Shown here: positions 1,961-54,184 of the stretch, one piece after another | Position numbering within the stretch: the first letter of the stretch is position 1 | How the letters are laid out: each line of letters starts with the position of its first letter | Assembly (NCBI GenBank): GCA_017450215.1 | Contig: JAFSVH010000087.1 | Coordinates: forward strand, 48,287 to 112,286 | Direction: 5' to 3' | DNA: 64,000 nucleotides | Source: Bacilli bacterium | GTDB taxonomy: Bacteria > Bacillota_I > Bacilli_A > ML615J-28 > CAG-698 | Notes under the pieces: model-generated | What the model was told of the DNA's origin: nothing | What the model saw: the letters and a program-made list of their open reading frames with translations, nothing else | Database searches by the model: none | Position numbers and translations under genes: made by a program

Positions 1961-4000
1961 ATGAGAAATATCAATAGAACATTATCTAAGTTTTTATTAT
2001 CTTTATTGTTTGTTATGTTATTTGTATCTATTCTCTCTGTATCAATAGTAAGTGCTGATACTGTTAAGACTGATGATGGTAGCTATAATTATACAACTAC
2101 TAGAGAGACAGTTAGAGAATTAACAAAGGGTTGTAATTTCATTTACAATCTAGGATATACTACAAGATCAAAAGTTAATTACGACCAAAGAGTAAGTTTA
2201 TTTTCTTGTGATGTAAGTGAGAATAGTGATATAAAGGTTGCTACATGGGCAATTCTAGATCCAAGTCATACTGGCTTTATTAGAAGAGGATTGCTTGAAG
2301 TTGCAAAAGATTATGAACGTCATAATCCAGGTTGGATTGTTCTTGCTGGAATAAATGCTGACCAATATTTTCCAACATTTGGAACAGGTATTGGAAGTAA
2401 TGGTAGTTATATGTATATTCCTTCTCCATATTATCCAATGGTATCAAATGGTGATAATTGGTTCACCATTTCAGCATTAGGTTATGCTACTATGAGTAAT
2501 GTAGTAGGCTTTAAGAATGATGGTTCAAAGGACCCTTTAGTTAATGGTCCAAGAACTGCAAATGGATTTATGTTATATGTTTATGATGAAAATGATAATG
2601 TAATTGATAAGCTTCCAGTTGATGGATTAAATTGTGATTTAGGTAGTAATAAAACTGTTGTATTTGCTACTTATAATGATGCAAAAGATTCATATAAAAG
2701 TATAACAAGAACAGCAAATAGTGATGAGACTATTTATTATGTAAGTACATCAGAATTATCTTATGTAAGTAATACAACTGCTTGGAAGAGTTGGAATGAT
2801 CGTGCACAAGATGCATTCTTCGGTAAAGGTGTTATTGCTTCTACTCCTGATTCAGTTACTTTAAATCGTGGTGCCTGCTTTGCTATTGTAACAAGTAATG
2901 CTGATGTTAAAGCTAAATTAGGTGTTGGTGTTAAAATTAAAGTTCAACTTGAATTTGATGATGGCTTTGCTGGAATTGAAGAAGCAATGGGATATCATAC
3001 AGTTCAAAGAAGAGGTGGAAAAGACCAAAACGTAGCTAATTCATACAATTCAAGAGCCTATCCAAGAAGTATGTTTGGTTGTGATGCTAATGGTAAAGTA
3101 TATTTAATGACTTGCTTTGGTGATAATTCTAGTCCTCTACAAGGTTTATATGCACAAGAATTCAATGCTGTATGTAAGAAATATGGTATCACTGATGCAT
3201 GGCAAATGGATGGTGGTGGTTCCGTTACTTCAATTGTAAGAGATGTTAACGGCACTGGTGAACTTAAATATAATGAAGCTTGTATTGAAGCATCACATAA
3301 TAAAAAGGTTGATACATATGAAGAATACCGTTATATCTTGAGCGGTTTATTTATCGTTATGAAATCACCTGAGTTAGATTTAGAAGTAACTGAGAAAAGC
3401 GATTCTAGCGTTAATTTAAGCCTAAATACAGCTAATCTACGCACTGCAAAAGGTGAAAAGTACGACTCTGTAACATTAAAGGTTTTAGACAAGAATAGTA
3501 AGGTATATAAGGATTTTGAAGTTGATTTAGAAAAAGAAGTAAATACATTTAATATTAAAGGTATGATTTCATTCAATGATTATTATTGTGAATTAAGTTA
3601 TACAAAAAATGGCTATGAACAACAAGGATATAAATATTTTAATTTCTATACTGACAAAGCAAAACCAAAGATAGATGTTTTAGAAGCAGTGAAGGTTGGA
3701 AATGGATATGAAATAAAGATATCTCTTATTGATACGGATGATAGTATTGAGAAAATGTATGCTGTTTATAATGATCAAAAATATGAAATGGCACTACATG
3801 ATGGTATTGCATCATGCACAATTACAGATAATATAGATATCAATAAATTAACTTATCAAGCTGAATGTATTTTTAAAGTTGCAAAGCAAGAAAAAGAAAC
3901 AGTTGATTTAGAAGTTCGTTATTTCAAATATCCAGTTAGTGATTTCTTTAGTCAAGCAATGAATAAAATAAATGAGATGATTGAAAGATTTAGTAGATAA
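1961..4000 (+). CDS. Secreted phosphodiester glycosidase family protein (NAGPA-like domain)
   Basis: N-terminal signal peptide. Conserved 'AWQMDGGGSVT' (DGGGS) block typical of the phosphodiester glycosidase family. Tandem paralog of 5698-7713. Confidence 0.5.
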   Translation: MRNINRTLSKFLLSLLFVMLFVSILSVSIVSADTVKTDDGSYNYTTTRETVRELTKGCNFIYNLGYTTRSKVNYDQRVSLFSCDVSENSDIKVATWAILDPSHTGFIRRGLLEVAKDYERHNPGWIVLAGINADQYFPTFGTGIGSNGSYMYIPSPYYPMVSNGDNWFTISALGYATMSNVVGFKNDGSKDPLVNGPRTANGFMLYVYDENDNVIDKLPVDGLNCDLGSNKTVVFATYNDAKDSYKSITRTANSDETIYYVSTSELSYVSNTTAWKSWNDRAQDAFFGKGVIASTPDSVTLNRGACFAIVTSNADVKAKLGVGVKIKVQLEFDDGFAGIEEAMGYHTVQRRGGKDQNVANSYNSRAYPRSMFGCDANGKVYLMTCFGDNSSPLQGLYAQEFNAVCKKYGITDAWQMDGGGSVTSIVRDVNGTGELKYNEACIEASHNKKVDTYEEYRYILSGLFIVMKSPELDLEVTEKSDSSVNLSLNTANLRTAKGEKYDSVTLKVLDKNSKVYKDFEVDLEKEVNTFNIKGMISFNDYYCELSYTKNGYEQQGYKYFNFYTDKAKPKIDVLEAVKVGNGYEIKISLIDTDDSIEKMYAVYNDQKYEMALHDGIASCTITDNIDINKLTYQAECIFKVAKQEKETVDLEVRYFKYPVSDFFSQAMNKINEMIERFSR

Positions 4001-4155: not shown

Positions 4156-5685
4156 ATGAAATTGCTTAGATTAATTTTTAGTAAATATTTTATATCAATA
4201 CTTATTATTCTTATTCAGATTACAGCAATTAATATTGGATTGAATTATTTGAAAGGTAAATTCTTGATTGCAGATGCGATAATATCACTTGTTGCATTTG
4301 TTATTTATTTTATAATTATTAATCGTAATCAAAATCCAGAATACAAAATTGCTTGGCTTGCCTTGGTTGCTACATTTCCAATAGTTGGTATTACTTTTTT
4401 CATTATGTTTGGTAATCCTAGACTAAAAAAGAAACAATCAGCAATGATGGAAAAGACTCACGAGAAGACTCAATTTTTAGTCGATTTAACAAGAGAAGAA
4501 AAAAAGAAATTATATGATTATTTAGGTGAATATGTAGGTATTGAAAAATATCTACGTCGTAATGGTCATACTGTAGGAAGTATGAACAGTAGAGTTACCT
4601 ATTATGATATTGGTGAGAAGATGTGGGAAGCTATGAAAGATGAATTAAGGAAAGCTAAAAAGTTCATCTTTATGGAATATTTTATAGTTGACCCAGGTGT
4701 GATGTGGAATGAGATACATGAAATATTAAAGGAAAAAGCAAAAGAAGGTGTTGAGGTTAGATTCTTATATGATGATTTAGGATCTATGACAATGCTTAAA
4801 AGTGGATATTATAAAACTTTAAGAGAAGAAGGAATTAATTGCTATAAGTTTAACAAAATTAGAGCAATTGTAAGTGGATCGTATAATAATAGAGACCACC
4901 GTAAAATCACAGTAATTGATGGCAAGGTAGGCTTTACTGGTGGTATTAATTTAGGTGATGAATATATCAATGTAAATAAAAGATTAGGCCATTGGAAGGA
5001 TGTTGGCATCAAGATTGAAGGAGAAGCAGTTAGAGATTTAACTGAATTATTCTTATTCAATTTTGATATGACTAGTAAAAATGTATCTAATTATGATAAA
5101 TATTTTGATTGTGACTATGAATCTTTTGAAAATTGTGGATACGTGCATCCATTTGGAACTGGCCCTAATCCATTCTATCCAGAACAAATTGGTGAAAATT
5201 TATTCATTTATTTGATTAATCATGCTAAACGTTACATCTATTTCACTACACCATATTTAATTATTGATTATAATCTTACTAATGCATTAAGGACAGCAGC
5301 CTTAAGAGGAGTAGATGTAAGAATTGTAGTACCTCATATTCCTGATAAAAAGCTAGTATTTAATATGACTAAATCTAGTTATGGATCACTCCTTAAAGCA
5401 GGAGTTAAGATTTATCAATATGAACCTGGTTTTATTCATGCAAAATCAATTATCAGTGATAATAAGATTGGTTTTGTTGGAACAATAAATATGGATTATA
5501 GAAGTTTAACTCACCATTATGAATGTGGTGCAGTCATCTATGATGCTCCTTGTTTAGTTGATTTGAAGGAAGATTTTCTTCATACATTTGATGTTTCTAT
5601 TGAGATAACTAAAGAAAATTATAAAATTAAAAGATTCCCAAAATTTATTATAACAATTATAAAAGCATTTTTCCCAATGTTTTAA
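4156..5685 (+). CDS. cls: Cardiolipin synthase (phospholipase D superfamily)
   Basis: Two HKD motifs ('HRKITVIDGKVGFTGGINLGDEY' and 'HAKSIISDNKIGFVGTINMDYRS'). N-terminal two TM helices. Length 509 aa typical for Cls. Confidence 0.85.
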   Translation: MKLLRLIFSKYFISILIILIQITAINIGLNYLKGKFLIADAIISLVAFVIYFIIINRNQNPEYKIAWLALVATFPIVGITFFIMFGNPRLKKKQSAMMEKTHEKTQFLVDLTREEKKKLYDYLGEYVGIEKYLRRNGHTVGSMNSRVTYYDIGEKMWEAMKDELRKAKKFIFMEYFIVDPGVMWNEIHEILKEKAKEGVEVRFLYDDLGSMTMLKSGYYKTLREEGINCYKFNKIRAIVSGSYNNRDHRKITVIDGKVGFTGGINLGDEYINVNKRLGHWKDVGIKIEGEAVRDLTELFLFNFDMTSKNVSNYDKYFDCDYESFENCGYVHPFGTGPNPFYPEQIGENLFIYLINHAKRYIYFTTPYLIIDYNLTNALRTAALRGVDVRIVVPHIPDKKLVFNMTKSSYGSLLKAGVKIYQYEPGFIHAKSIISDNKIGFVGTINMDYRSLTHHYECGAVIYDAPCLVDLKEDFLHTFDVSIEITKENYKIKRFPKFIITIIKAFFPMF

Positions 5686-5697
5686 AAGGAGTGAAAT

Positions 5698-7713
5698 ATG
5701 AAAATTAAGAATATAATTACAAAATGTTTTATTTTCTTGTTTGCTATTGCCTCTTCTTTTATCTTTATTAACTTAAATATAAAAGCAGAAGATACAGTAA
5801 AAACAGATGATAATAATTATTATTATACTACAAAAAGTGAAGTGACAAGAGAGCTTGCTAGTGGTGTTGAATATACAATTAATTTAGGTAAAACTGGACA
5901 CACAGCAAGTAATTTTGAAGAGAGAGTTAGTATATTTAGTGCTGATATTAGTAAGAATAGTGATGTGAAAATTGCTACATGGGCACCTCAAAATGGTAGT
6001 CATACGGGATATACTAGAAAAGCACTACTTGATATTGCGAAAGATTATGAAGCTAATAATCCAGGTTGGATTGTTCTTGCTGGAATTAATGCAGATCAAT
6101 ACTTCCCTTCATTTGGTACTGGAATTGGTAAAGATGGTTCTTATATGTATGTACCTTCTCCATATTATCCTATGATTACAAATGGAGATAATTTGTTCAC
6201 TTATACTGCACTTGGTAATGCTAGTAAAAATAATGTAGTAGGATTTAAAAATGATGGTTCGAAAACACCACTTGTAAATGGTGAAAGAACTATTGATGGA
6301 TTCTATATTACTGTATATGGTGATAGTGATGAAGTTATTAAATGCATGAAGATTGATGGATTAAATTGTGATTTAGGAAGTCAAGGAACTGTAGTACTTG
6401 CATCATATAATGTTGATAAGAATACTCAAGCTAGAATTACTAGAACTGGTAATAAGTATTATGTAGTTAATAATGCTGAACTATCATATGTAAGCAATAC
6501 AACTGAGTGGTTAAGCTGGAATAATAGAGCTGTTGATGCTTTCTTTGGTAAAGGTGTTATTGATGAAGTTAGAGATAATGTTGATATTACAGGTGGTAAT
6601 AAATTTGCAATTGAGACTAATAATGAAGAATTAAAAGCAGTTCTAAAAAAAGATGTAAGAATTAAAGTTGAAGTAGAATATGCAGATGAATTTAAAGACA
6701 TTGAAGAAGCAATGGGATATCATACAATTCAAAGAAGAGGAGGGCTTGATCAAAATGTTGACAACGCCTATAATTCTAGATGCTATCCTAGAAGTATGTT
6801 TGGTTGTGATGCCAATGGTAAAGTATATTTAATGACTTGCTTTGGTGATAATGCTGGTCCAACTAAAGGTTTATATGCTCAAGAATTCAATGCTGTATGT
6901 AAGAAATATGGAATTACTGATGCATGGCAAATGGATGGTGGTGGTTCTGTTACTTCAATTGTTAGAGATGAAAATGGAATCTTAGATTATGCTGAAGCAT
7001 GTATTGAAGCATCTCATTCAGGTGAAAGAAAATTCTCTGGTTATCGATTAGTCTTAAGTGCGTTGTTCATTGTTATGAAAGTACCTAATGCATCTATAAC
7101 AGTTAATGAAAAATATTCAACTGGTGTTAAGATGATTTGTGATTTAAAAGATATTTTAGGTAATTATGATGAAGCTAAATTAAAATTCTTTGATGAAGAA
7201 GGTAGTAATGTCTCTAATTATTCACTTGATTTAAGTAAAGCAATCAATGAATGCAATATTGATGGGTTGGAAGCTAATAGGAATTATACATATGAATTAT
7301 ATGTAAAGAAGAATGGCTATGATGAACAAAGAACATTTGTTAATGGTGCATTAAATACACTTAAAATGATTCCAGTTTTGAAAGCTTTAGAGATTGTATA
7401 TACTGATGATGGATTTATGATTGAAGCTTCTATTGATGATAAGCAAAAAGCGTTGATTTCATTATATGCATGGTTTGGTAATAGAAAAATTGCATTCAAG
7501 CAAAAAGGAGAAGTATATCAAGCCTTCGTGGAGGCTGAAAAAAATTATAATCCTCTTGATGTAGCAATATCAGCTGATTGTATGTTAGATTCTAAATTAA
7601 CAAAGCATGATGATTGTGAGTTAGAACTTAACAATGTCAGTTATCCAGCTTTAGCATTCTTTGCTTATCCTGAGAAAGCATTAGAAGAAATATTAAAGAA
7701 TTTGTATAATTAA
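5698..7713 (+). CDS. Secreted phosphodiester glycosidase family protein, paralog of 1961-4000
   Basis: Signal peptide. Same 'AWQMDGGGSVTSIVRD' block. Roughly two-thirds aa identity to the upstream paralog with near-identical nucleotide patches. Confidence 0.5.
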   Translation: MKIKNIITKCFIFLFAIASSFIFINLNIKAEDTVKTDDNNYYYTTKSEVTRELASGVEYTINLGKTGHTASNFEERVSIFSADISKNSDVKIATWAPQNGSHTGYTRKALLDIAKDYEANNPGWIVLAGINADQYFPSFGTGIGKDGSYMYVPSPYYPMITNGDNLFTYTALGNASKNNVVGFKNDGSKTPLVNGERTIDGFYITVYGDSDEVIKCMKIDGLNCDLGSQGTVVLASYNVDKNTQARITRTGNKYYVVNNAELSYVSNTTEWLSWNNRAVDAFFGKGVIDEVRDNVDITGGNKFAIETNNEELKAVLKKDVRIKVEVEYADEFKDIEEAMGYHTIQRRGGLDQNVDNAYNSRCYPRSMFGCDANGKVYLMTCFGDNAGPTKGLYAQEFNAVCKKYGITDAWQMDGGGSVTSIVRDENGILDYAEACIEASHSGERKFSGYRLVLSALFIVMKVPNASITVNEKYSTGVKMICDLKDILGNYDEAKLKFFDEEGSNVSNYSLDLSKAINECNIDGLEANRNYTYELYVKKNGYDEQRTFVNGALNTLKMIPVLKALEIVYTDDGFMIEASIDDKQKALISLYAWFGNRKIAFKQKGEVYQAFVEAEKNYNPLDVAISADCMLDSKLTKHDDCELELNNVSYPALAFFAYPEKALEEILKNLYN

Positions 7714-44526: not shown

Positions 44527-44603
44527 GTCCTAGTAGCTCAGTTGGATAGAGCGATAGCCTCCTAAGCTGTAGGTCGGGGGTTCAATTCCCTTCTAGGACG
44601 CCA
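44527..44603 (+). tRNA. tRNA-Arg (anticodon CCT), CCA encoded
   Basis: Cloverleaf readable. Acceptor GTCCTAG/CTAGGAC. D-arm GCTC/GAGC. Anticodon stem ATAGC/GCTGT with loop CTCCTAA. T-loop TTCAATT. 3' GCCA. Confidence 0.85.
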
Positions 44604-44657
44604 TATTAGTTGTACTATATTGATACCAAGAAAAATATCAATATTTGTAATAAAATT

Positions 44658-44688
44658 GGGTAAAATCGGTGTATTTTGCCCTTTTTTT
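44658..44688 (+). terminator. Rho-independent terminator after the tRNA (GGGTAAAAT cggtgt ATTTTGCCC + TTTTTTT)
   Basis: 9-bp stem (one G-U) plus a 7-T run. Confidence 0.6.
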
Positions 44689-44753
44689 ATGCTTTTATAG
44701 TAAAAATGATGAGAAATATAGGATAAAAATCTTAAAAAAAGTTGATCATCAAT

Positions 44754-44832
44754 AAATTTTTACACGATTACAATTGATTTTACACGTTTTACACGATTTG
44801 AAGACAATTTTACACGATTTTACACGATTTAA
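44754..44832 (+). repeat. Iteron-like direct repeats, family A: five copies of (TTT)TACACGATT(T) at about 10/20-bp phasing
   Basis: Copies start at 44761, 44781, 44790, 44811, 44821. Confidence 0.7.
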
Positions 44833-44837
44833 AAAAG

Positions 44838-44925
44838 AACCTTTTAGAGGTTCGTGAACGATTTGGGGGGTTCGTAAACGATTTGAGGGTTCGTGAACGA
44901 TTAGGGGGTTCGTGAACGATTTCAG
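44838..44925 (+). repeat. Iteron-like direct repeats, family B: four copies of GGGG(G)TTCGTGAACGATTT at 19-20 bp spacing, preceded by the palindrome GAACCTTTTAGAGGTTC
   Basis: Copies start at 44851, 44871, 44890, 44909. Each core has a mini-palindrome TCGT-GA-ACGA. Family A and family B share the ACGATT core. Confidence 0.7.
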
Positions 44926-45557
44926 ATTTTCATGCATTTTTTATCATTTACTAGTCTAAAAAATGTTCCTCTAGATACTCCTATTATTTTAGCAGCTTCT
45001 ATGTTGGTAAGTTGATGATTTATATATTGGGTTAGAATCTCATCGGTGTTAGGTGGGGTGACCGCTCTAGGTCTTCCAAACTTAACACCTTTTTCTTTTG
45101 CTATTCTTATTCCTTCCATCTGTCTTTCTCTTATGTTGTTCCTCTCATTCTCCGCAACAAAGCTTAATACTTGTAAAACAATATCACTTATAAACTTACC
45201 GACTAGATTCTTGCCTTCTATTCTAGTATCCAAAAGGGGCATATCTAATACTTTAATATCAGCACCTATTGTTTTTGTGATTCTTGTCCATTCTTCTAAT
45301 ATCATATGATAATTTCTACCTAAACGATCTATTGACTTAATAATCAGTAGGTCGTCTTTTTTTATTTTCTTTATTAATCTTTGGTAATTAGTTCTATTAA
45401 AGTCTTTCCCTGATTCTTTGTCTATATAAATGTACTTGTCTTCAATATTAAGAGTTTTAATCTCTTCATATTGCCTGTCTATTTTTTGTTGTTTCGTGGA
45501 AACACGTATGTATGCATATATCATTGAATTAATACCTCCGCTCTCATATATAGCCAT
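44922..45557 (-). CDS. Small serine recombinase (resolvase/invertase family) with C-terminal HTH
   Basis: N-terminal 'YAYIRVSTKQQ' catalytic-Ser motif, 'DRLGRN' motif, C-terminal 'AAKIIGVSRGTFFRL' HTH. 211 aa. Confidence 0.85.
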   Translation of the reverse strand: MAIYESGGINSMIYAYIRVSTKQQKIDRQYEEIKTLNIEDKYIYIDKESGKDFNRTNYQRLIKKIKKDDLLIIKSIDRLGRNYHMILEEWTRITKTIGADIKVLDMPLLDTRIEGKNLVGKFISDIVLQVLSFVAENERNNIRERQMEGIRIAKEKGVKFGRPRAVTPPNTDEILTQYINHQLTNIEAAKIIGVSRGTFFRLVNDKKCMKI

Positions 45558-45800
45558 AAAAGAAAAAATTATTCAAGCAAAACAGGTATAAAAAAAGAAG
45601 CATCAAAGAAGATATAAAAATGTATACCTTTTGATACTTCGTTATTTCTTTTATTATACCATGATTTTTATGAAAATTCCACGAAAAAATTGAATAATAA
45701 GCTAATTTTGAAATTTTTTGATATAACTTCAATCATTCTAATTAACCATACAATTTTAGACTAACAAGATTGTGTAATCTTAAAAAGAGGTAATTAGAAC

Positions 45801-46751
45801 ATGGATTTTATTAGATCACCATTAAATTATACTGGAAATAAATTTAGGATTTTAGATCAAATAGTTCCTTTATTTCCAAAAAAAATATCATGTATGATTG
45901 ATCTGTTCTGTGGTGGAGCTACTGTAGGATTGAATGTAAAAGCGAATAAAATAATTTTTGTTGATTCAAATGAGCATATCATCAATTTGTTGGTCTATTT
46001 ATCAAAGCATTCTTTCGAATCAGTACTTTGTTCTTTTGAAAACATTATTAATAAATATAATCTTTCTTATTCATATAAGTACGGATATAAAAAATATAGA
46101 GATTATTCAAAAAATAAAAATGATAATAATGGATTAAAAGAATACAATAATAAAGGCTTTTACCTGCTTCGTGATGACTATAATTCTTTGATAGATAAGA
46201 ATACAGATGAAGCCAATGCTATGCTTTATATATTAATGGTATATGCATTTAATAATGATATACGATTTAATTCGGATGGTGATTTTAATCTTCCAGTTGG
46301 AAAAACGGATTTAAATCGAATGAATGTAAATAAAATACGACAATATATAGATAGAATTAAAAGTATTAATGCAGAGTTTGTTTGTACTGACTTTACAAGT
46401 GATGATTTTCAATTATTGGTCAAAAAAGCTGACTTCATATATATGGATCCACCATATTTATTGGGTGATGCTGTATACAATTCTTGTTGGAACAATGAAA
46501 TGGAGCATAAATTATTAGATTTCATTGATTATATTAGAAATGAAAAAATTGATTTTGCCTTATCAAATGTTATGACAAAAATTGGAAAAACAAACGAGCC
46601 ACTTTCCTATTGGGTTTATAAAAATAAAGATTATTTAAAAGTAAATCACATTAAATATAATTATCGCAGCTCAAGTTATAACAAAATAATGCGCGATGCA
46701 AAAGAAGATGAAGTACTCATTTGTAATAAGAGGTATCGCCATGAAAATTAA
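45801..46751 (+). CDS. Dam-like (D12 class, alpha group) N6-adenine DNA methyltransferase 1
   Basis: 'YTGNKFRIL' N-terminus, motif I 'DLFCGGATVG', motif IV 'IYMDPPYL'. RBS AAGAGG. Confidence 0.8.
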   Translation: MDFIRSPLNYTGNKFRILDQIVPLFPKKISCMIDLFCGGATVGLNVKANKIIFVDSNEHIINLLVYLSKHSFESVLCSFENIINKYNLSYSYKYGYKKYRDYSKNKNDNNGLKEYNNKGFYLLRDDYNSLIDKNTDEANAMLYILMVYAFNNDIRFNSDGDFNLPVGKTDLNRMNVNKIRQYIDRIKSINAEFVCTDFTSDDFQLLVKKADFIYMDPPYLLGDAVYNSCWNNEMEHKLLDFIDYIRNEKIDFALSNVMTKIGKTNEPLSYWVYKNKDYLKVNHIKYNYRSSSYNKIMRDAKEDEVLICNKRYRHEN

Positions 46752-47751
46752 TAATAGACGATACATAGGATGTAAAACGAAATTATTAGACTTCATTTAT
46801 GATTCAGTTGAAAGATACAACATTTCTAAAGACTCGGTATTTGCTGATATTTTTGCAGGAACGGGAGTTGTAGCTTATAGATTTGCTTTAGAAGGATATA
46901 AAACAATTTTAAATGATACTTTATTTTCAAATTATGTGATTTATAAAACTATTTTTAATAATGAAATAATGAGAATAGATTTGTTGAAAAACGAAATAAA
47001 TTATTTTAATTCAATAGATAGTGATTCATTAAAAGCAAATTATTTTTCAAACACTTATGGTGGAAAATACTATTCTTTTGATAATGCCAAAAAAATAGGA
47101 TTTATAAGAGATTACATTGAAGAAAACAAACAAAAGTATAATGAAAGGGAATATTACTATTTAATTACCTGTTTATTATATGCATGCGATAAAATTGCAA
47201 ATACAGTTGGACATTTTGAATCATATCTACATAGTGCTCCTAAAGGAGAAAAACTTATGTTAGAAGAGTTTGAGATGAATAGCAATCTTCCTGAATCTTA
47301 TATATATAACGAAGATGCTAATAATCTTGCAAAAAAAATAAATGCAGATATTGTATATATTGATCCTCCTTACAATGCTAGACAATATGTGAATTTTTAT
47401 CATGTTTTAGAAAATTTAGCAAGGTGGAATAAGCCGACTGAATTTGAAGGAAAATCAATGAAATTTAAACGAGACAATCTTAAAAGTGATTATTGTAGAA
47501 GTAAAGCACCTTTATTGTTTGAGGATTTAATTCAATCACTAAAATGTAAATTAATTGTTGTCTCATATAATAATACATACAATGCAAAAAGTGTATCCTC
47601 TAATAATACAATTAGTGAAGATCAAATAATTGAAATATTAAGTAAAAAAGGAAATGTAACTATTAAGACAATTGATTATAGTGCATTTAATGCTGGCAAA
47701 ACAGATTTAAAAAATCACAAAGAATATTTGTATATATGTGAGGTATTTTAA
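46741..47751 (+). CDS. Dam-like (D12 class) N6-adenine DNA methyltransferase 2. Start chosen at ATG 46741 (RBS AAGAGG) rather than the ORF-track start 46696.
   Basis: 'RYIGCKTKLL' Dam N-terminal signature, motif I 'DIFAGTGVVA', motif IV 'VYIDPPYNA'. Overlaps MTase 1 by 11 nt. Confidence 0.8.
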   Translation: MKINNRRYIGCKTKLLDFIYDSVERYNISKDSVFADIFAGTGVVAYRFALEGYKTILNDTLFSNYVIYKTIFNNEIMRIDLLKNEINYFNSIDSDSLKANYFSNTYGGKYYSFDNAKKIGFIRDYIEENKQKYNEREYYYLITCLLYACDKIANTVGHFESYLHSAPKGEKLMLEEFEMNSNLPESYIYNEDANNLAKKINADIVYIDPPYNARQYVNFYHVLENLARWNKPTEFEGKSMKFKRDNLKSDYCRSKAPLLFEDLIQSLKCKLIVVSYNNTYNAKSVSSNNTISEDQIIEILSKKGNVTIKTIDYSAFNAGKTDLKNHKEYLYICEVF

Positions 47752-48668
47752 TGACAATACTTGAATACTATATTAAACAACAATCCATTGATATTTGGTA
47801 TGAAAAGTTCATTAGTAGTTCAAATAAACAAAGTGGAAAATCATTTAGTTATGTTAATACTAACTATAGAAATTTACTTTCATTTTTAATTCAATTTGAT
47901 CGATTTAGATCAAAAGTAGGAATTGAACGAAAAGATTGGAATGACAAATTGCCTGGTGGACAAGAATTAGACAAACATAGAATATCTAATTTGATTTTGT
48001 CGGGATTTATTCGAAAGGAAGACACTTATTATTACTATACACCAAAAGGTGTTGCTGCTTTGGATTTAATAGATAAAAACTATGGTGATTCCATAAAATG
48101 GATATTATTATACTTACTTCTTTTAGATTATAAAAGTGAAAATAGAAACTGCGATATTATTCACACTACAAAAGATCTTTTTTCAAAGTTACAATCAATT
48201 GGTTATACAAATGAATGTATATTAAATAGTCTAAGAAAAATAATAAAAGTAACTGATAAAATAAAACTTTTTAACGAAGATATATTTTGGTTGATCTCGT
48301 TTGTTAATGATGAAGATTTTATTAAAATGTATAAGAATAGTAGCGAACAAGAAAAAAACGATTTGAAAGAATTTGTAATTAATCGTTCAAAAGACGAACA
48401 TAGTACTGATTTGATAGCACACAAATACACACCTGGTGGAATTTATAGTGGAATAATGTTTAGGGAAGATGTTAAGGTATTTTATTATACATATAAAATA
48501 ATTGGAATACTTTCAGAGCCATTTGATTCATTTATTAATGAAATAATAAAAGTATATTGTGAAGATTTTTGTTCAGAAAATGACGCTGATATAATAAAAG
48601 AATTCATTAGCAGTCATAAAAGTATTTATATTAAAGTTAAACAAGAATTATTAATGGGGGTAAAGTAA
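47751..48668 (+). CDS. Hypothetical 305-aa protein, translationally coupled between the MTases and the GmrSD-like gene; candidate restriction endonuclease or specificity partner
   Basis: Start ATG overlaps the MTase 2 stop (TAATG). No recognised motif. A loose D...(D/E)xK candidate sits at 'TDLIAHK...FREDVK'. Position after paired MTases is where Type II REase genes sit. Confidence 0.3.
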   Translation: MTILEYYIKQQSIDIWYEKFISSSNKQSGKSFSYVNTNYRNLLSFLIQFDRFRSKVGIERKDWNDKLPGGQELDKHRISNLILSGFIRKEDTYYYYTPKGVAALDLIDKNYGDSIKWILLYLLLLDYKSENRNCDIIHTTKDLFSKLQSIGYTNECILNSLRKIIKVTDKIKLFNEDIFWLISFVNDEDFIKMYKNSSEQEKNDLKEFVINRSKDEHSTDLIAHKYTPGGIYSGIMFREDVKVFYYTYKIIGILSEPFDSFINEIIKVYCEDFCSENDADIIKEFISSHKSIYIKVKQELLMGVK

Positions 48669-48669
48669 A

Positions 48670-50742
48670 ATGCCAAATGTAAGACCTGATAGATTTGAAT
48701 TATTAAGATTTTTTAAATATGCTCCAAATACCCAATTTGTAATCCCTGTATATCAAAGAAATTATATATGGACTGCCAAAAAACAAGTAAGAAAATACTT
48801 AGATGATTATAAAGCTGTATTAAGTGGTGAGCGTGTAAAACATTTTATTGGTATTATAATGTACTTACAAATACAAAGAAGCATTGGATTTTTTGAATTT
48901 TCTGTAGTTGATGGTCAGCAGAGATTTGTAACCACATTTTTGATGCTATATGCTTTAAAGAAAATTGCTATGGAAGCTGGTAATCTTACTTTCGCGACTC
49001 AAATTAATGATTTATATTTAACAAATCAATATGCGAAAAATTATAATGATAAACTAAAATTAAAACCATTGGTATCTGATGATGATGTATTCAGCAAAAT
49101 AATAAAAGATGATCTACAGAATTTAACAAAAGAAGAAAAAAAGTCGAATGTTTATATTAATTATATTACTGTAAAAAAATATTTAAAAGAACTATATGGA
49201 CATTTTCAACTAGAACAAATGTTAGAAGCTTTTGATAAGTTTTATTTTGTTGCAATTCCATTAGATAGTAGTGAAGATGATGCTCAAAAGATTTTTGAAA
49301 CCATAAATTCTGCTGGTGCTGCATTGACAAAATCAGACTTAATTCGAAATTATATTTTGATGAATATGCAGAGCTATGAGCAAGATAGATTATACAAGGA
49401 ATATTGGTATCCTATGGAAAAATCTTTTGCTAGTTCTGGAAAAATAGAAAATTTCTTTAGAATGTTTTTGGCTAATAGAAATTACAATCTAAGTAATATG
49501 GAAGACATTTATGATGTTTTTCAAATTTGGTTTGATAAAAACAGATCAAATTATGGAATAGAACAGTCTTTAAAAACAATTTGTAAATATGCAAAATATT
49601 ATAATGATTTATTTATTAAAGAAAAGGTTGAAATTGCTCCAGAAATAGATGTTGCTTTAAAAGAATTCAAAAAAAATGCAATAGAACCTACTGCTCCTTT
49701 GTTAATGGAAATTTATAATCTATACGATAGTAAAGATGATAAGAACGACCGCCTTGTTTCAGCTATGGAATTTGCAAAGATTATTAATTTATTTAATATT
49801 TATAATGTTAGAAGAAATATTTGCAATCAAAGAACTGGTATATTAACTCGTATAGTTCCATTAATGTTGAAGTATGTTCTTGATAATTGCGATGGTGTCT
49901 ATTCAAAGATTTATGAACATTGTGTTCGTTATCTAGTAGACAATTCAAAAGGCAAGCAATCATTTATGCCAGATGATGAATATTTGAAATTAAATTTATC
50001 TGGTGCTAATGCTTATAGTTTGAGAAATTATGTAAAAACTATATTTGAAAAGATAGAGTCATATAATAATCCTGCAGTAATTGATTTTTCAAATTTAAGT
50101 ATAGAACACTTAATGCCACAGACTCCAACGGATGAGTGGCTTAAAACTTTGAATATAAAAAAGGAAGACTACGAATTTAATGTTCATAGACTTGGTAATT
50201 TAACTCTTGCTACGTCAGTAGATAATAGTAAAATGTCAAATAATCCATTTGAATATAAAAAGCAAGTTCTTCAAAATACATCTCATTTAAAAATGAATAT
50301 GGAGATAATTAACAAACCAACGTGGGGAATAAAAGAAATAGAGGAAAGAACTGCATATTTAATTCAAAAAATATGCGATTTATATCCATATGTTTCAGTT
50401 GGAGAGCAAACTGTTAATCATTATAATGTTTATTTAAAGAATGATAATTCTGACATATCTGCATTTTTGTTTTCGGATGAAACAATTGAAATTCAAGAGG
50501 GTAGCATAATAAAATGCTCATATAATAATTTCATTAGGGACTTGGTTGAAGATGGAATAATAAAGGAATCGGGAGAAAAATACGAATTTTTGCAACCATA
50601 TTCATTTAGTAATATTGAAGAAGCAACAAATACAATGGCACCCGATATTACAAATTGCTGGGAATCATGGGTAGACTATAATAAACAACCATTAAGTCTT
50701 GAATTAAGAGCAAAGTTGCTAAATTCTAAAGCAAAAAAATAG
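48670..50742 (+). CDS. GmrSD-family Type IV restriction-endonuclease-like protein (N-terminal DUF262 ParB-like NTPase/nickase + C-terminal DUF1524 His-Me finger nuclease)
   Basis: DUF262 'VVDGQQRF' (DGQQR) motif. C-terminal 'IEHLMPQTP...HRLGNLTLATSVDNSKMSNNPF' HNH-like DUF1524 motif. 690 aa. Starts 1 nt after the previous stop. Confidence 0.75.
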   Translation: MPNVRPDRFELLRFFKYAPNTQFVIPVYQRNYIWTAKKQVRKYLDDYKAVLSGERVKHFIGIIMYLQIQRSIGFFEFSVVDGQQRFVTTFLMLYALKKIAMEAGNLTFATQINDLYLTNQYAKNYNDKLKLKPLVSDDDVFSKIIKDDLQNLTKEEKKSNVYINYITVKKYLKELYGHFQLEQMLEAFDKFYFVAIPLDSSEDDAQKIFETINSAGAALTKSDLIRNYILMNMQSYEQDRLYKEYWYPMEKSFASSGKIENFFRMFLANRNYNLSNMEDIYDVFQIWFDKNRSNYGIEQSLKTICKYAKYYNDLFIKEKVEIAPEIDVALKEFKKNAIEPTAPLLMEIYNLYDSKDDKNDRLVSAMEFAKIINLFNIYNVRRNICNQRTGILTRIVPLMLKYVLDNCDGVYSKIYEHCVRYLVDNSKGKQSFMPDDEYLKLNLSGANAYSLRNYVKTIFEKIESYNNPAVIDFSNLSIEHLMPQTPTDEWLKTLNIKKEDYEFNVHRLGNLTLATSVDNSKMSNNPFEYKKQVLQNTSHLKMNMEIINKPTWGIKEIEERTAYLIQKICDLYPYVSVGEQTVNHYNVYLKNDNSDISAFLFSDETIEIQEGSIIKCSYNNFIRDLVEDGIIKESGEKYEFLQPYSFSNIEEATNTMAPDITNCWESWVDYNKQPLSLELRAKLLNSKAKK

Positions 50743-50749
50743 AGGACTA

Positions 50750-51409
50750 ATGATGATGACAAAAGGATTTATTTATATTTTAACTAATCCATCTTTCGAA
50801 GGTCATGATTGGGTGAAAATAGGCTACACAAAGAATGTGGAAAAAAGAAGAAAGGATTTGTCCACTACCGCATTACCTTTTGAATATGAGATATACGCAT
50901 ATTATGAATTACCAGAAGGAGTTGAACTAGCAGATAAAGCTGTTCATAATCTTATCCAACAATTGAATCCAGGCATTAGATTAAATCCCAATAGGGAATT
51001 CTTTGATATGAAACCAGAAGATGCATATAATTTATTAAATTGTATTGCTAAAATTAATGGTAAGGAACTAGTTAATGGACCTGGTAGAATAGAATATGAA
51101 AAAACTTTACAAATAAAAACAAAAGATTCGCCCAAAAAATATCCTAAAATGGATTGGCTAATGGAACAGGGAGTAATTAAGCCAGGTGATGACATTTATG
51201 TCGTAAACCATCCGGAAGATGTTGCAACTATAATTGATGCTGATACTGTGGAATATAATGGCGATAAATTATCTTTTAATCAATTTGGATGTAAAGTTAC
51301 TGGATGGAGTGCTATACAGACATATGCATTAATGAAAAAGGTTGGTTGCAGCGAAACACTTCATGAATTAAGATTGGCAAAAATGCAGGAAGTTAATTGG
51401 AAAGGTTAA
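50750..51409 (+). CDS. GIY-YIG-like (T5orf172) nuclease-domain protein with C-terminal DUF4357
   Basis: 'GFIYILTNPSFEGHDWVKIGYTKNVEKRRKDL' matches the T5orf172/GIY-YIG pattern. C-terminal region is of DUF4357 type. 7 bp after the GmrSD-like gene. Confidence 0.65.
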   Translation: MMMTKGFIYILTNPSFEGHDWVKIGYTKNVEKRRKDLSTTALPFEYEIYAYYELPEGVELADKAVHNLIQQLNPGIRLNPNREFFDMKPEDAYNLLNCIAKINGKELVNGPGRIEYEKTLQIKTKDSPKKYPKMDWLMEQGVIKPGDDIYVVNHPEDVATIIDADTVEYNGDKLSFNQFGCKVTGWSAIQTYALMKKVGCSETLHELRLAKMQEVNWKG

Positions 51410-51527: not shown

Positions 51528-53000
51528 GTGTTAGGAAAAGAACAATATTTGAAATTGCAAGAATTAAAAGAATTGGGATTATCAAAACTAAAAGTATCTG
51601 AAAAACTAAATCTTTCATATAAGACTGTTTGTAATTGGTGGGATAAGGACGAATCATATTTTGAATCTTTTGAAAAAGAACATGAGTTTATGCTTGATAA
51701 TTATCGTCAATACATTATTGAGATATTAAAAATAAGTCCTCAAATTCATAATACAGTAATATTAAGAAGGATTAAAGATGACTTTAAAGATTTTGATGTT
51801 CCAAAGCAAACATTTTTTAGGTACATTAAAAAACTGAGAGAACAATCTGGTTTAATTAAACCACCTAGAAAGTTTCAAATTAGAGAACAAACAGAACCAG
51901 GATATGAAGGACAAGTTGATTTTGGTCAGTATGTTATGCAAACGGCATACAAGAAGAACATAAGAATATATTTCTTTTGTATGACATTATCATATTCCAG
52001 AATGAAGTTTGCTTGTTTTAGTGTAGAACCATTTGATGCTAGAATGGTAGTAGATGCTCACATTGCCGCATTCAAGTACTTTGGTGGAAGACCGCAAATG
52101 CTAGTATATGACCAAGACAAAACAATGGTAGTATCAGAGAATTTAGGAGAAGTAGTATTTGTTAAAGAATTTGAAGATTTTATCAAACAAACAGGATTTT
52201 CAATTTATCTATGTAAAGGTTATGATCCATCTACTAAAGGTAAGATTGAAAAAACTGTAGACTTTGTTAAACATCAGTTTTTAGATGGAAGAATCTATTA
52301 TGGCCTTGATAGACTTAATTGTGAATTTATTGATTGGTTAGATCGTGAAGGAAATGGATTAATTAATGACACAATAAAGAAAGTTCCACGAGATATGTTT
52401 AAGCATGAATATCCAAAACTTCAAAAGTTTTATGAAATTAAAAATGATGATATTGTGGTTCATACTGTTTATCATGATACTGTTGAATATAAGGATAATC
52501 TGTATAAGCTTCCTCAAGCATTAGTTGATGAAGGAGATAGAATTAGAATTGAAAAGTACGACGATGATTTACTATTTTACCATGCATTAACAAGTGAACT
52601 ATTGTGTAAACATAAGATAGTTGGTGGAATGGGTAATATTGTAACACTAAAAGATGAGAAAATAGTTAATGATACAGTAGAAGAAGTATTATTAAAAGAT
52701 TTCAAAGATAGTGATGTAGCGATTAAGTTTATTAAAAGAATGAGAGAACAAAAACCAAGATATGTATATCCTCAGTGTAGAAGGCTCCAAAGTATGAGAA
52801 AGTATTATTCTGATAAGGCGATAATAGATGCAATGGAATATTGTGTTAGTGTTGACACATGTACGATATTTGAATTATCTAGTTATCTAATTTATAAAAT
52901 GGGAGATACAATAGCTAAGAAGTTTATAACTACACATGTTATAAGACATTATAAGGATAGAGCAGAAGAGATTAGAAAGGAGTTAATTAATAATGGCTGA
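51528..53000 (+). CDS. istA: IS21-family transposase IstA (HTH + DDE integrase core)
   Basis: N-terminal HTH 'LSKLKVSEKLNLSYKTVCNW'. DDE core 'GQVDFGQ'. 490 aa. GTG start with RBS AGGAGGTG. Confidence 0.85.
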   Translation: MLGKEQYLKLQELKELGLSKLKVSEKLNLSYKTVCNWWDKDESYFESFEKEHEFMLDNYRQYIIEILKISPQIHNTVILRRIKDDFKDFDVPKQTFFRYIKKLREQSGLIKPPRKFQIREQTEPGYEGQVDFGQYVMQTAYKKNIRIYFFCMTLSYSRMKFACFSVEPFDARMVVDAHIAAFKYFGGRPQMLVYDQDKTMVVSENLGEVVFVKEFEDFIKQTGFSIYLCKGYDPSTKGKIEKTVDFVKHQFLDGRIYYGLDRLNCEFIDWLDREGNGLINDTIKKVPRDMFKHEYPKLQKFYEIKNDDIVVHTVYHDTVEYKDNLYKLPQALVDEGDRIRIEKYDDDLLFYHALTSELLCKHKIVGGMGNIVTLKDEKIVNDTVEEVLLKDFKDSDVAIKFIKRMREQKPRYVYPQCRRLQSMRKYYSDKAIIDAMEYCVSVDTCTIFELSSYLIYKMGDTIAKKFITTHVIRHYKDRAEEIRKELINNG

Positions 53001-53655
53001 TAATATTGAAATACAAGCACTTGCTAGAGTACTTAATTTACAAAACATAGCTAATGGTAATATTGATCTAAATAATGAAAGAATATCAAATAAAGATTAT
53101 TTATATCAGATTTTACTTGAAGAAGTAAATATTAGAAATAAAAACAAGTTAATGGATATTAGAAAAATGGCTAAGCTTCCTAATAAGGTATTTGATGAAA
53201 CAAGAATAACTGAAGGATTAAAGTGGCAATTATCTAAACTTAAAGAATTTGATTTTAAATTAAACAAACAAAACATATTTATTGTTGGGGACTGTGCAAC
53301 AGGAAAAACTTCTCTTGCAACACTATTAGGCAATAAAGCACTTGACAAAGGTGCTAAAGTATCTTACATTACTTATGATGATTTAGTTATTGAATCTAAA
53401 ATAAAGAAAAGAGTATGGAATCATATTTTAGAATCTGATGTACTAATACTAGATGATGTGTTTTATTTACCACCAACTGAAGAAGAACTAATTCAAATAT
53501 ATAAGGTTTTAATGTTTTTACAAGAAACAAGGAGTATTATTGTAATTACTAATAGAAGCTTATCTAGTTGGAAAGATATGAAGGTAGATACACATTTAAT
53601 TGAGACATTGCAAAAAAGACTGATGCAGAACGCTCAAATAATTACACTTGGCTAA
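52993..53655 (+). CDS. istB: IS21-family helper ATPase IstB
   Basis: Walker A 'FIVGDCATGKTSLA'. Walker B 'VLILDDVF'. Overlaps istA by 8 nt. Confidence 0.85.
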   Translation: MADNIEIQALARVLNLQNIANGNIDLNNERISNKDYLYQILLEEVNIRNKNKLMDIRKMAKLPNKVFDETRITEGLKWQLSKLKEFDFKLNKQNIFIVGDCATGKTSLATLLGNKALDKGAKVSYITYDDLVIESKIKKRVWNHILESDVLILDDVFYLPPTEEELIQIYKVLMFLQETRSIIVITNRSLSSWKDMKVDTHLIETLQKRLMQNAQIITLG

Positions 53656-53934
53656 AGAGTAGTAGGTTCATCAGTTGCCATAAAGATAACCTCCTTTGTG
53701 ATAAGTGATGAGTTTAATATTTGACTGTTAGGAACTCGTAGGAGTGTATAAAAATTCTCAAAAATTACCAATTAATTAGCAAAATTTGAGAATATTTTAT
53801 AAAAAAGGGGTAGGGGGGTCTAAATCTCTGTACCTTTTTACCCGGGCATCGGCCTGGGGTTTCGTGCGAATTTTTTTGAGTTCAAACTGTGAAAATAGTA
53901 TTATCGTAACAATTCCATTCAATTGGATTAATGT

Positions 53935-54184
53935 GGTTGGTAATAAAGTTGGTAATAAGGTTGGTAATAAAGTTCTAGGGAAAGATGAAAAGGCAGACTT
54001 GACCGAAAACAGAAAGAAAATAATAAGTGAAATTAGAAACAACCCTAATATCACAAAAGAACAATTATCGATGATTATAGGAATTAGCACAACAGCTATT
54101 GATAAGAATTTAGAATACTTAAAAGTGCATAATTATATTGAAAGAGTAGGCTCTAAGAAAACAGGATATTGGAAAGTAAAATAA
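53935..54184 (+). pseudogene. C-terminal remnant of a wHTH transcriptional-regulator/ATPase gene (RecG-C-terminal-like 'HATPase_c_4 + wHTH' family), preceded by VGNK tetrapeptide-repeat linker; 5' part missing
   Basis: 'KKIISEIRNNPNITKEQLSMIIGISTTAIDKNLEYLKVHNYIERVGSKKTGYWKV' is the characteristic C-terminal wHTH of that family. Upstream 'VGNKVGNKVGNKV' is encoded by 3 tandem 12-bp repeats at 53947-53982. There is no upstream ATPase domain; an IS sits immediately 5'. Confidence 0.5.

Follow-up and report, generated by a model that had tools for sequence, protein, structure and literature searches.

Among the closest described counterparts of the sequences analysed here are the arm-type, Xis and Cox-box sites of integrative elements, such as those of the lambda P′ arm and the P2 Cox boxes. 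We analysed two arrays of direct repeats, termed families A and B, that lie between a tRNA-Arg(CCT) gene and the gene for a small serine recombinase in a 64,000-nucleotide stretch of a Bacilli bacterium genome (assembly GCA_017450215.1, contig JAFSVH010000087.1, positions 48,287 to 112,286; the whole stretch is hereafter called the window, and coordinates are positions within it). As in arm-type, Xis and Cox-box arrays, the units are short direct repeats in one orientation and roughly helical phase, they are positioned between a recombinase gene and a tRNA junction, their sequence is element-specific and, in the related element L009, the arrays flank a core that is repeated at both element ends (L-numbers denote loci with recombinase homologues or related flanks). 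However, the described systems use tyrosine integrases with an arm-binding domain or a known small Xis or Cox protein, whereas this locus offers only a small serine invertase with a single invariant helix-turn-helix (HTH) and, in the window copy, no Xis-like gene. Our tentative reading, to which we give less than an even chance, is that the arrays serve as arm sites of an integrative defence cassette, specific to the element, in helical phase and bound by a protein, the binder itself being putative.

The recombinase, as opposed to the arrays, is reminiscent of the Hin/Gin/Cin/Pin and Bacteroides Mpi switches in its domain order and size, in its palindromes of ~26–28 bp with an A-tract (TTATCAAAAACC here, GTATCAAAAGGT in hix) and in the placement of these sites around an invertible promoter that is observed in nature in both orientations. 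It differs in that Hin-type switches use a Fis-binding enhancer inside the invertase gene rather than direct-repeat arrays on its 3′ flank, and in that the central dinucleotide here is palindromic.

Three further classes of repeated site resemble the arrays in part. Resolvase accessory sites (Tn3 res II/III, Sin resH site II) also cluster beside a small serine recombinase gene, and Sin site II demonstrates that a direct-repeat geometry is possible for accessory sites; res sites, however, lie upstream and reuse the crossover half-site motif, whereas the arrays lie downstream and their motif is unrelated to the crossover site. Plasmid iterons share the tandem 19–22-bp direct repeats, the second repeat family and the nearby AT-rich stretch, but here there is no initiator gene and no plasmid match, and the setting is chromosomal and tRNA-linked. 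Subterminal transposase-binding repeats (IS607 ends, Tn7 TnsB sites, IS21 terminal repeats) are likewise short motifs stacked inside one element end; however, no such transposase is linked to the arrays, the IS21 of the window is 6.6 kb off and has no repeat in common with them, and the N-terminal MerR-like DNA-binding domain of the IS607 recombinase is absent from the window recombinase.

Repeat arrays in the tRNA-proximal arm of a mobile element

Family A (plus strand, 44758..44829) consists of five units of TTTTACACGATT, with exact copies starting at 44758, 44787, 44808 and 44818 and a degenerate, one-mismatch copy at 44778 (start-to-start spacing 20, 9, 21 and 10). Family B (plus strand, 44849..44921) consists of four units of GGTTCGTGAACGATT separated by G-run linkers, with exact copies starting at 44849, 44888 and 44907 and a one-mismatch copy at 44869 (spacing 20, 19 and 19). 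Units measure 12–19 bp and linkers 0–9 bp. When one mismatch was allowed, the 64-kb window returned six family A matches (0.75 expected), while the four copies of family B were its only matches at up to three mismatches (0.62 expected); none of 100 shuffles reached six and four, respectively. Tandem Repeats Finder (TRF) scored the two arrays at 74 (period 10) and 118 (period 19). Every unit lies on one strand and the families have an ACGATT core in common, which on the recombinase strand is part of the AAATCGT shared by all units. The 172-bp array region holds 8 of the window's 14 plus-strand ACGATT hexamers, against a maximum of four in 200 shuffles. The sequence-only reading had proposed two repeat families with this spacing and shared core, as well as a palindrome between them, and all of these were recovered, the repeats far above shuffle expectation and the palindrome (GAACCTTTTAGAGGTTC) at 44837-44853. 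An AT-rich stretch (44690-44757) adjoins the arrays. That reading was also right to reject a CRISPR array: units and linkers of these lengths do not correspond to 24–48-bp repeats with unique spacers of similar length, and no cas genes were found among the Pfam-scanned open reading frames (ORFs) of the island.

The arrays are carried within a 320-bp arm that runs from the CCA end of tRNA-Arg(CCT) (44527..44603, plus strand; ARAGORN, Rfam tRNA 66 bits) to the stop codon of the recombinase gene. Positions 44604-44921 are ~96 % identical in loci L177, L181 and L183, beside recombinases of 94–98 % identity, and the terminal segment (44604..44657) is 100 % conserved in all three up to the junction. 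These four copies of the arm have four flanks: tRNA-Arg in the window, another tRNA in L183 (Rfam 41.6 bits) and two non-tRNA sequences. In each case the similarity stops exactly at ...CAACTAATA/TG(G), the slash marking the junction (CTAATA/TG(G), also written ...TATTAG/CA), and this point is the tRNA CCA end, indicating that the arm is the end of a mobile element and that the CCA end is its insertion junction. An integrated element, one of the options given in the sequence-only reading, is supported, and it is mobile and lies next to the tRNA. Relatives of the L022 type behave in the same way at four flanks of their own, with the junction at ...TTTCTTAA/TG. As with arm-type sites, the arrays are thus internal to the element and occupy the arm that adjoins its attachment junction.

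The sequence of the arm varies unevenly. Across the four aligned copies, 1 of 96 columns is variable in the repeat cores and 10 of 67 in the spacers or linkers (Fisher p = 0.0007). All four 14-nt cores of family B are invariant in the four arm copies, with variation confined to the C/G-run linkers, and the ATCGTGT cores of family A are invariant in these independent copies save for the window's own degenerate unit. The cores are thus constrained.

Placement beside a tRNA is common in this family. Among ~31 close homologues from GTDB species representatives, 11 stand tail-to-tail with a tRNA or tmRNA gene within 700 bp, which is the classical position of an att arm. The tRNA partners include Leu-CAA, Leu-TAG, Cys, Glu-CTC, Ala-CGC, Pro-CGG and Thr, tmRNA occurs three times, and in those loci the element sequence begins right at the CCA. 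Nearly identical modules are found at different tRNAs, which is unusual for site-specific integration. Positions 3515-3880 of L014 contain the same arm twice, in head-to-head arrangement; one copy is truncated, which looks like the insertion of one element within another's arm. A metagenome scan with TrmL returned two relatives in which TrmL is followed by tRNA-Arg(CCT) without the island; at 68–72 % protein identity, these are too distant for the far boundary of the island to be drawn from them. The T-stem of the window tRNA-Arg(CCT) reads GGGGG/CCCTT, with two G-U pairs, and that of the island-free relatives L097 and L098 reads GTAGG/CCTAT; the insertion may have altered the 3′ part of the window tRNA.

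Terminators partition the arm. The palindrome between the two families is most readily understood as an intrinsic terminator, that of the recombinase gene (44831..44853, minus strand; GAACC-TCTAAAA-GGTTC then T6, found by terminator scan). The 5′ half of its stem, read on the recombinase strand, is the family B unit farthest from the stop codon (44849-44863). Family B consequently occupies the 3′ untranslated region (UTR) of the recombinase gene, from stop codon to terminator, while family A lies beyond the terminator. The arrays had been described as standing next to the recombinase gene, and they do adjoin it; the side needs correcting, as they meet its 3′ end (stop codon 44922-44924) and not its promoter side. 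On the tRNA side, the same scan detected a plus-strand intrinsic terminator (44658..44688; GGGTAAAAT-CGGTGT-ATTTTGCCC then T7). Between this terminator and the tRNA, the inverted repeat ATATTGATA-N10-TATCAATAT (44617-44644) forms a hairpin that holds TTGATACC, the motif of the outer, HTH-contacting part of a hix-like half-site, but with its polarity reversed or its spacing off by 1 nt. Hairpins with GATAC...GTATC abut the tRNA in seven related loci; the distal arm of the window hairpin has TATC in place of GTATC. A degenerate landing site is one possible interpretation of this hairpin, and a terminator acting in both directions is another.

Family B also bears some resemblance to the T-arm of the adjacent tRNA (GGGGGTTCG compared with GGGGGTTCAA). 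We rejected the idea that it mimics the T-arm, because array units elsewhere (e.g. GAAAAATGTCC) do not resemble a T-arm and the junction is found at the CCA, not within the T-loop. T-arm-like fragments (e.g. AGGGTTCAAGTCCCGTTATTAGTA and GGAGTTCAAGTCTC) do occur, in tRNA orientation, between the intact tRNA and the recombinase gene in the arms of L012, L017, L022/L024/L028, L041 and L033.

The recombinase and its promoter switch

The recombinase gene (44922..45524, minus strand) encodes 200 aa from a conserved Met, within a frame that is open to 45557. Its product has an N-terminal catalytic domain and a C-terminal HTH and is Hin/Gin/Mpi-like: Pfam Resolvase (PF00239) matches residues 13-158 (3.8e-26), the PHROG 'DNA invertase' family matches at 9e-49 and the best NCBIfam model, under its cut-off, is the Mpi master invertase. 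Its HTH tail reads GVSRGTFFRLV. Homologues start at MIYAYIRVST, and the family is very abundant in metagenomes at 80–98 % identity, with more than 8000 homologues recorded.

The crossover sites of this enzyme lie elsewhere than in the arrays. Alignment of the regions upstream of the homologues revealed a conserved 28-bp palindrome, GGTATCAAAAGGTA/TACNTTTTGATACC (the slash marking the centre), ~100 bp before the start codon and a second, half-conserved hix-like site ~125–145 bp farther out. The proximal site of the window (GATATAAAAATGTA/TACCTTTTGATACT, 45611..45638) occupies the same place as in ~15 homologous loci; it is the only full hix-like site in the window, and none of 20 shuffles produced one. 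The distal site (45735..45762; AGTCTAAAATTGTA/TGGTTAATTAGAAT on the minus strand) has a half-site score of 12.0, and its 'poor' inner half is conserved among relatives. Between the two centres lies a 124-bp invertible segment (45625..45748) carrying an extended -10 promoter (TGG-TATAAT, 45661-45653, minus strand), which in the window aims at the recombinase gene. Loci L024 and L029 are collinear at 95 % identity except that the homologous segment is inverted, with breakpoints exactly at the GTA/TAC centres. All same-species contigs share the orientation seen in the window, and contigs with exactly the same recombinase all represent one locus, again in that orientation. The domain order, the two inverted sites and the occurrence of the segment in both orientations among relatives together identify the enzyme as a Hin/Gin-like invertase whose promoter switch is placed between its own gene and the defence cargo.

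The arrays had also been proposed to be a res-like or accessory binding array of the adjacent recombinase. We consider this improbable, also for sites resembling Sin site II or an enhancer. In its favour, the arrays adjoin the recombinase gene in many family members. Sin-type resolvases bind directly repeated half-sites at accessory sites, a precedent for this type of binding, and most units consist of an A-tract followed by TG or CG (AAATCG, AAAATG), loosely resembling the inner hix-like half-site AAAATGTA. However, a matrix built from 22 hix-like half-sites gave no match scoring at least 8 in 44604-44925, the outer GGTATC motif is missing from the arrays and the hix-like sites lie upstream of the gene. 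Furthermore, the recognition region of the recombinase (IGVSRGTFFRLV) is invariant across relatives whose array units are unrelated to one another (AGAAAAATGTCC, AAATCGTTCACGAACC, AAWTGCAACC and RTGCTGA), which argues against the recombinase HTH reading the arrays, and arrays are wholly lacking from family members L019, L026 and L180. The putative binder is thus probably a protein other than the recombinase.

Arrays in related elements and their possible role

Direct-repeat arrays recur across the recombinase family. Arrays with periods of ~19–23 or 29–33 bp start at the recombinase stop codon or immediately ahead of it in L009/L012, L014, L015 and L041, whereas in L027, L043 and the distant L071 the distance downstream from the stop is 85–190 nt; a 54 %-identical homologue from Lachnospiraceae is a distant member that also bears an array. 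The units differ between lineages: AAWTGCAACCMCCC in L009/L012 (three units), AAATCGTTTAATTTTGAAACCACC in L041, AGAAAAATGTCC in L014/L015 (four units, two of which code for the C-terminal tail) and approximately six AAWTGCAAC-type units in L017, from a few tens of nucleotides past the stop. TRF returned five qualifying arrays within a few hundred bp 3′ of stop codons, compared with only four in unrelated control loci totalling 800 kb; the period of each of these four is a multiple of 3 and thus coding-like by period alone. Units of the window, L041 and L009 have AAATCGTT...(G/C)AACC in common and are therefore homologous, evolving by duplication.

Two compact relatives illustrate the layout of such elements. 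The unit in L009 is 3956 bp long and comprises one array, a type IIG restriction-modification gene, the switch, the gene for the recombinase and another array; it is bounded by a perfect 20-bp direct repeat (796-815 and 4752-4771) that contains a hix-like half-site. Its arrays lie just inside both ends, in the same orientation, so that circularisation would place the core between arrays, the layout expected of an attP with accessory sites. In the window, a single array-bearing end was found. In L016, a 3.3-kb unit lies between direct repeats of ~55 bp (3455-3510 and 6740-6797; host terminator). Both cassettes comprise one defence gene, the switch and the invertase, which is the sole recombinase inside.

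A candidate binder comes from sister elements. In L022, L024, L028 and L029, the same arm position is occupied by a gene for an 83-aa HTH_28/zinc-ribbon protein, with a family-A-like motif (TTCGTGTAAA, ACACGAT) upstream of it. The binder of family A may be a small HTH/zinc-ribbon protein of this kind, which in the window would be supplied in trans.

Repeats of other kinds occur in the flanks of these elements. All three non-tRNA flanks bear other C-rich direct-repeat arrays: ATGCACCCT (three units) and GTGACA (four units) in the L177 flank (1006-1320), CCGTACCCCT (three units) in the L181 flank (1000-1131) and TACTAGCACCC(C)TAG (two units) in the L029 flank (7250-7330), the last followed by two large serine recombinase genes (597 and 431 aa). 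We also considered whether the arrays are stacked remnants of older recombinase 3′ ends and discarded this, as the window units are unlike the ORF end, even though the first unit overlaps the ORF end in L041, L015 and L009.

Under the reading that we tentatively favour, the arrays would lie subterminally in a mobile defence cassette, in its tRNA-proximal arm, the cassette having landed exactly at the CCA end of tRNA-Arg. The cassette would comprise a Hin-like invertase, its invertible promoter and restriction-modification or other defence cargo. Judging from sequence and arrangement, a protein would bind the arrays and bend or wrap the arm, as happens at arm-type, Xis or Cox-box sites, and the bent or wrapped arm would assist or control site-specific recombination at the element end, that is, integration or excision. 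The arrays possibly also insulate the convergent tRNA and recombinase transcription units.

Several observations weigh against this interpretation. Neither a second element end nor a second array was found in the window by searching for repeats of the terminal 165 bp, long-range exact repeats and hix-like motifs; the window copy may be immobilised, and its excision is putative. L019, L026 and L180, with stop-to-tRNA gaps of just 15–61 bp, have no array, and the arrays are therefore not essential for residence at a tRNA. The window contains no homologue of the 83-aa HTH gene, nor does its copy of the element include an Xis-like gene, and the family-A-like motif of the sister elements is short, with two of its four copies there poorly conserved. 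The test of core constraint covers four copies of the arm only. Finally, family B, being in the 3′ UTR of the recombinase gene, may act at the RNA level.

It is unlikely that the arrays are functionless by-products of tandem duplication, arising where the recombinase gene ends on its 3′ side, through slippage or unequal exchange. Such an origin would fit the overlap of the first unit with the last codons in L041, L015 and L009, where the C-terminal tails vary with the unit, the fast turnover of unit sequences between lineages and the array-free state of L019, L026 and L180. However, the contrast between invariant cores and variable spacers holds over four separately inserted copies, arrays recur at the same position in members as distant as the Lachnospiraceae homologue, their periods cluster near two or three helical turns and arrays of this type are rare in control DNA.

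We regard it as quite improbable that family B is a C-rich 3′ UTR repeat coupled to the terminator, which would set mRNA stability or termination (e.g. through Rho loading or an RNA-binding protein) and keep the invertase low. The position of family B between stop codon and minus-strand terminator, with one unit forming half of the stem, agrees with such a role, and the seven array types whose units end in a 3′ C-run are rich in C and poor in G on the mRNA strand (family B of the window, L009, L041, L015, L043 and the L181 and L177 flanks). However, the units of L027 are not C-rich and L071 shows the opposite strand bias. Folding of the array region gave no signal on either strand relative to shuffles (z = -0.37 and 0.03), and Rfam returned only the tRNA. 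Family A lies past the terminator, and the far-end array of L009 is outside any recombinase transcript.

A replication origin or partition site of a plasmid-like element, with family B as Rep iterons, family A as DnaA-box-like sites (TTTTACACG compared with TTWTNCACA) and 44690-44757 as the unwinding region, is highly improbable, as is the replication or transfer origin of the sequence-only reading: the iteron-like 19–20-bp period, the fit of family A to a relaxed DnaA-box consensus at eight of nine positions (by eye), the adjoining AT-rich stretch and the distant plasmid-borne relatives of the recombinase all speak for it, but Pfam found no Rep, Par, relaxase or tyrosine integrase among the island ORFs up to the ABC-transporter genes at 58.4 kb, L009 and L016, as minimal related elements, contain cargo and recombinase only, and BLASTn of 44604-45800 gave no array match in 72,556 plasmids and 50,697 phages, where the recombinase gene alone had matches, nor was there one in viral contigs.

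Defence cargo and significance of the locus

The defence cargo (45801..51409, plus strand; Pfam) lies upstream of the recombinase gene and is divergent from it. It comprises two Dam-class methyltransferases, a 305-aa protein without a family match, a GmrSD type IV nuclease and T5orf172. The first part (45801-48668), with the two methyltransferases and the 305-aa protein, looks like a DpnII-type system; in one same-species contig (L092, 11815-12833), the first methyltransferase is split into ORFs of 126 and 176 aa.

The cargo is followed on the distal side of the island by an IS21 (istA/istB, 51528-53655) and, past it, a GC-rich patch (~53800-53880). A winged-helix-ending ORF (53786-54184), possibly a gene disrupted by the IS, contains three units of the 12-bp tandem repeat GGTAATAAAGTT at ~53940-53975. 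A degenerate copy of family B had been suggested to lie at 53857-53876, such that directly repeated sites would bracket the recombinase and restriction-modification module. The copy was not recovered within three mismatches. The best local alignment at 53.86 kb spanned 11 nt (score 17); 68 of 500 shuffles scored at least as high, as did 30 of 628 other 101-nt stretches of the window. The match is at chance level, and the bracketing sites go with it.

Taken together, the earlier interpretation was right in part. The arrays belong to an integrated mobile element, in which they represent a conserved cis element that is probably protein-binding. Whichever explanation of the arrays holds, the locus can be re-annotated: the 'resolvase' is an invertase with an intact promoter switch before a DpnII-like/GmrSD defence island, and the arrays are to be listed neither as CRISPR-like nor as res but as a cis element that is conserved and testable.

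A wider proposal, which we consider doubtful, is that a widespread family of small Hin-like serine invertases in gut and rumen Bacilli and Mollicutes has two activities, both flipping a defence promoter and integrating a 3–10-kb cassette at tRNA or tmRNA CCA ends or at resident hix-like sites, with the arrays giving directionality. If true, this would make the cassette a mobile defence element of a new kind, targeted to tRNA genes and driven by an enzyme of the invertase type, and a compact site-specific integration module could be on offer. A serine invertase of ~200 aa would then both phase-vary and mobilise defence genes beside tRNA and tmRNA genes in uncultured gut Bacilli and Mollicutes, which could help explain the shuffling of restriction-modification and other defence genes in reduced genomes.

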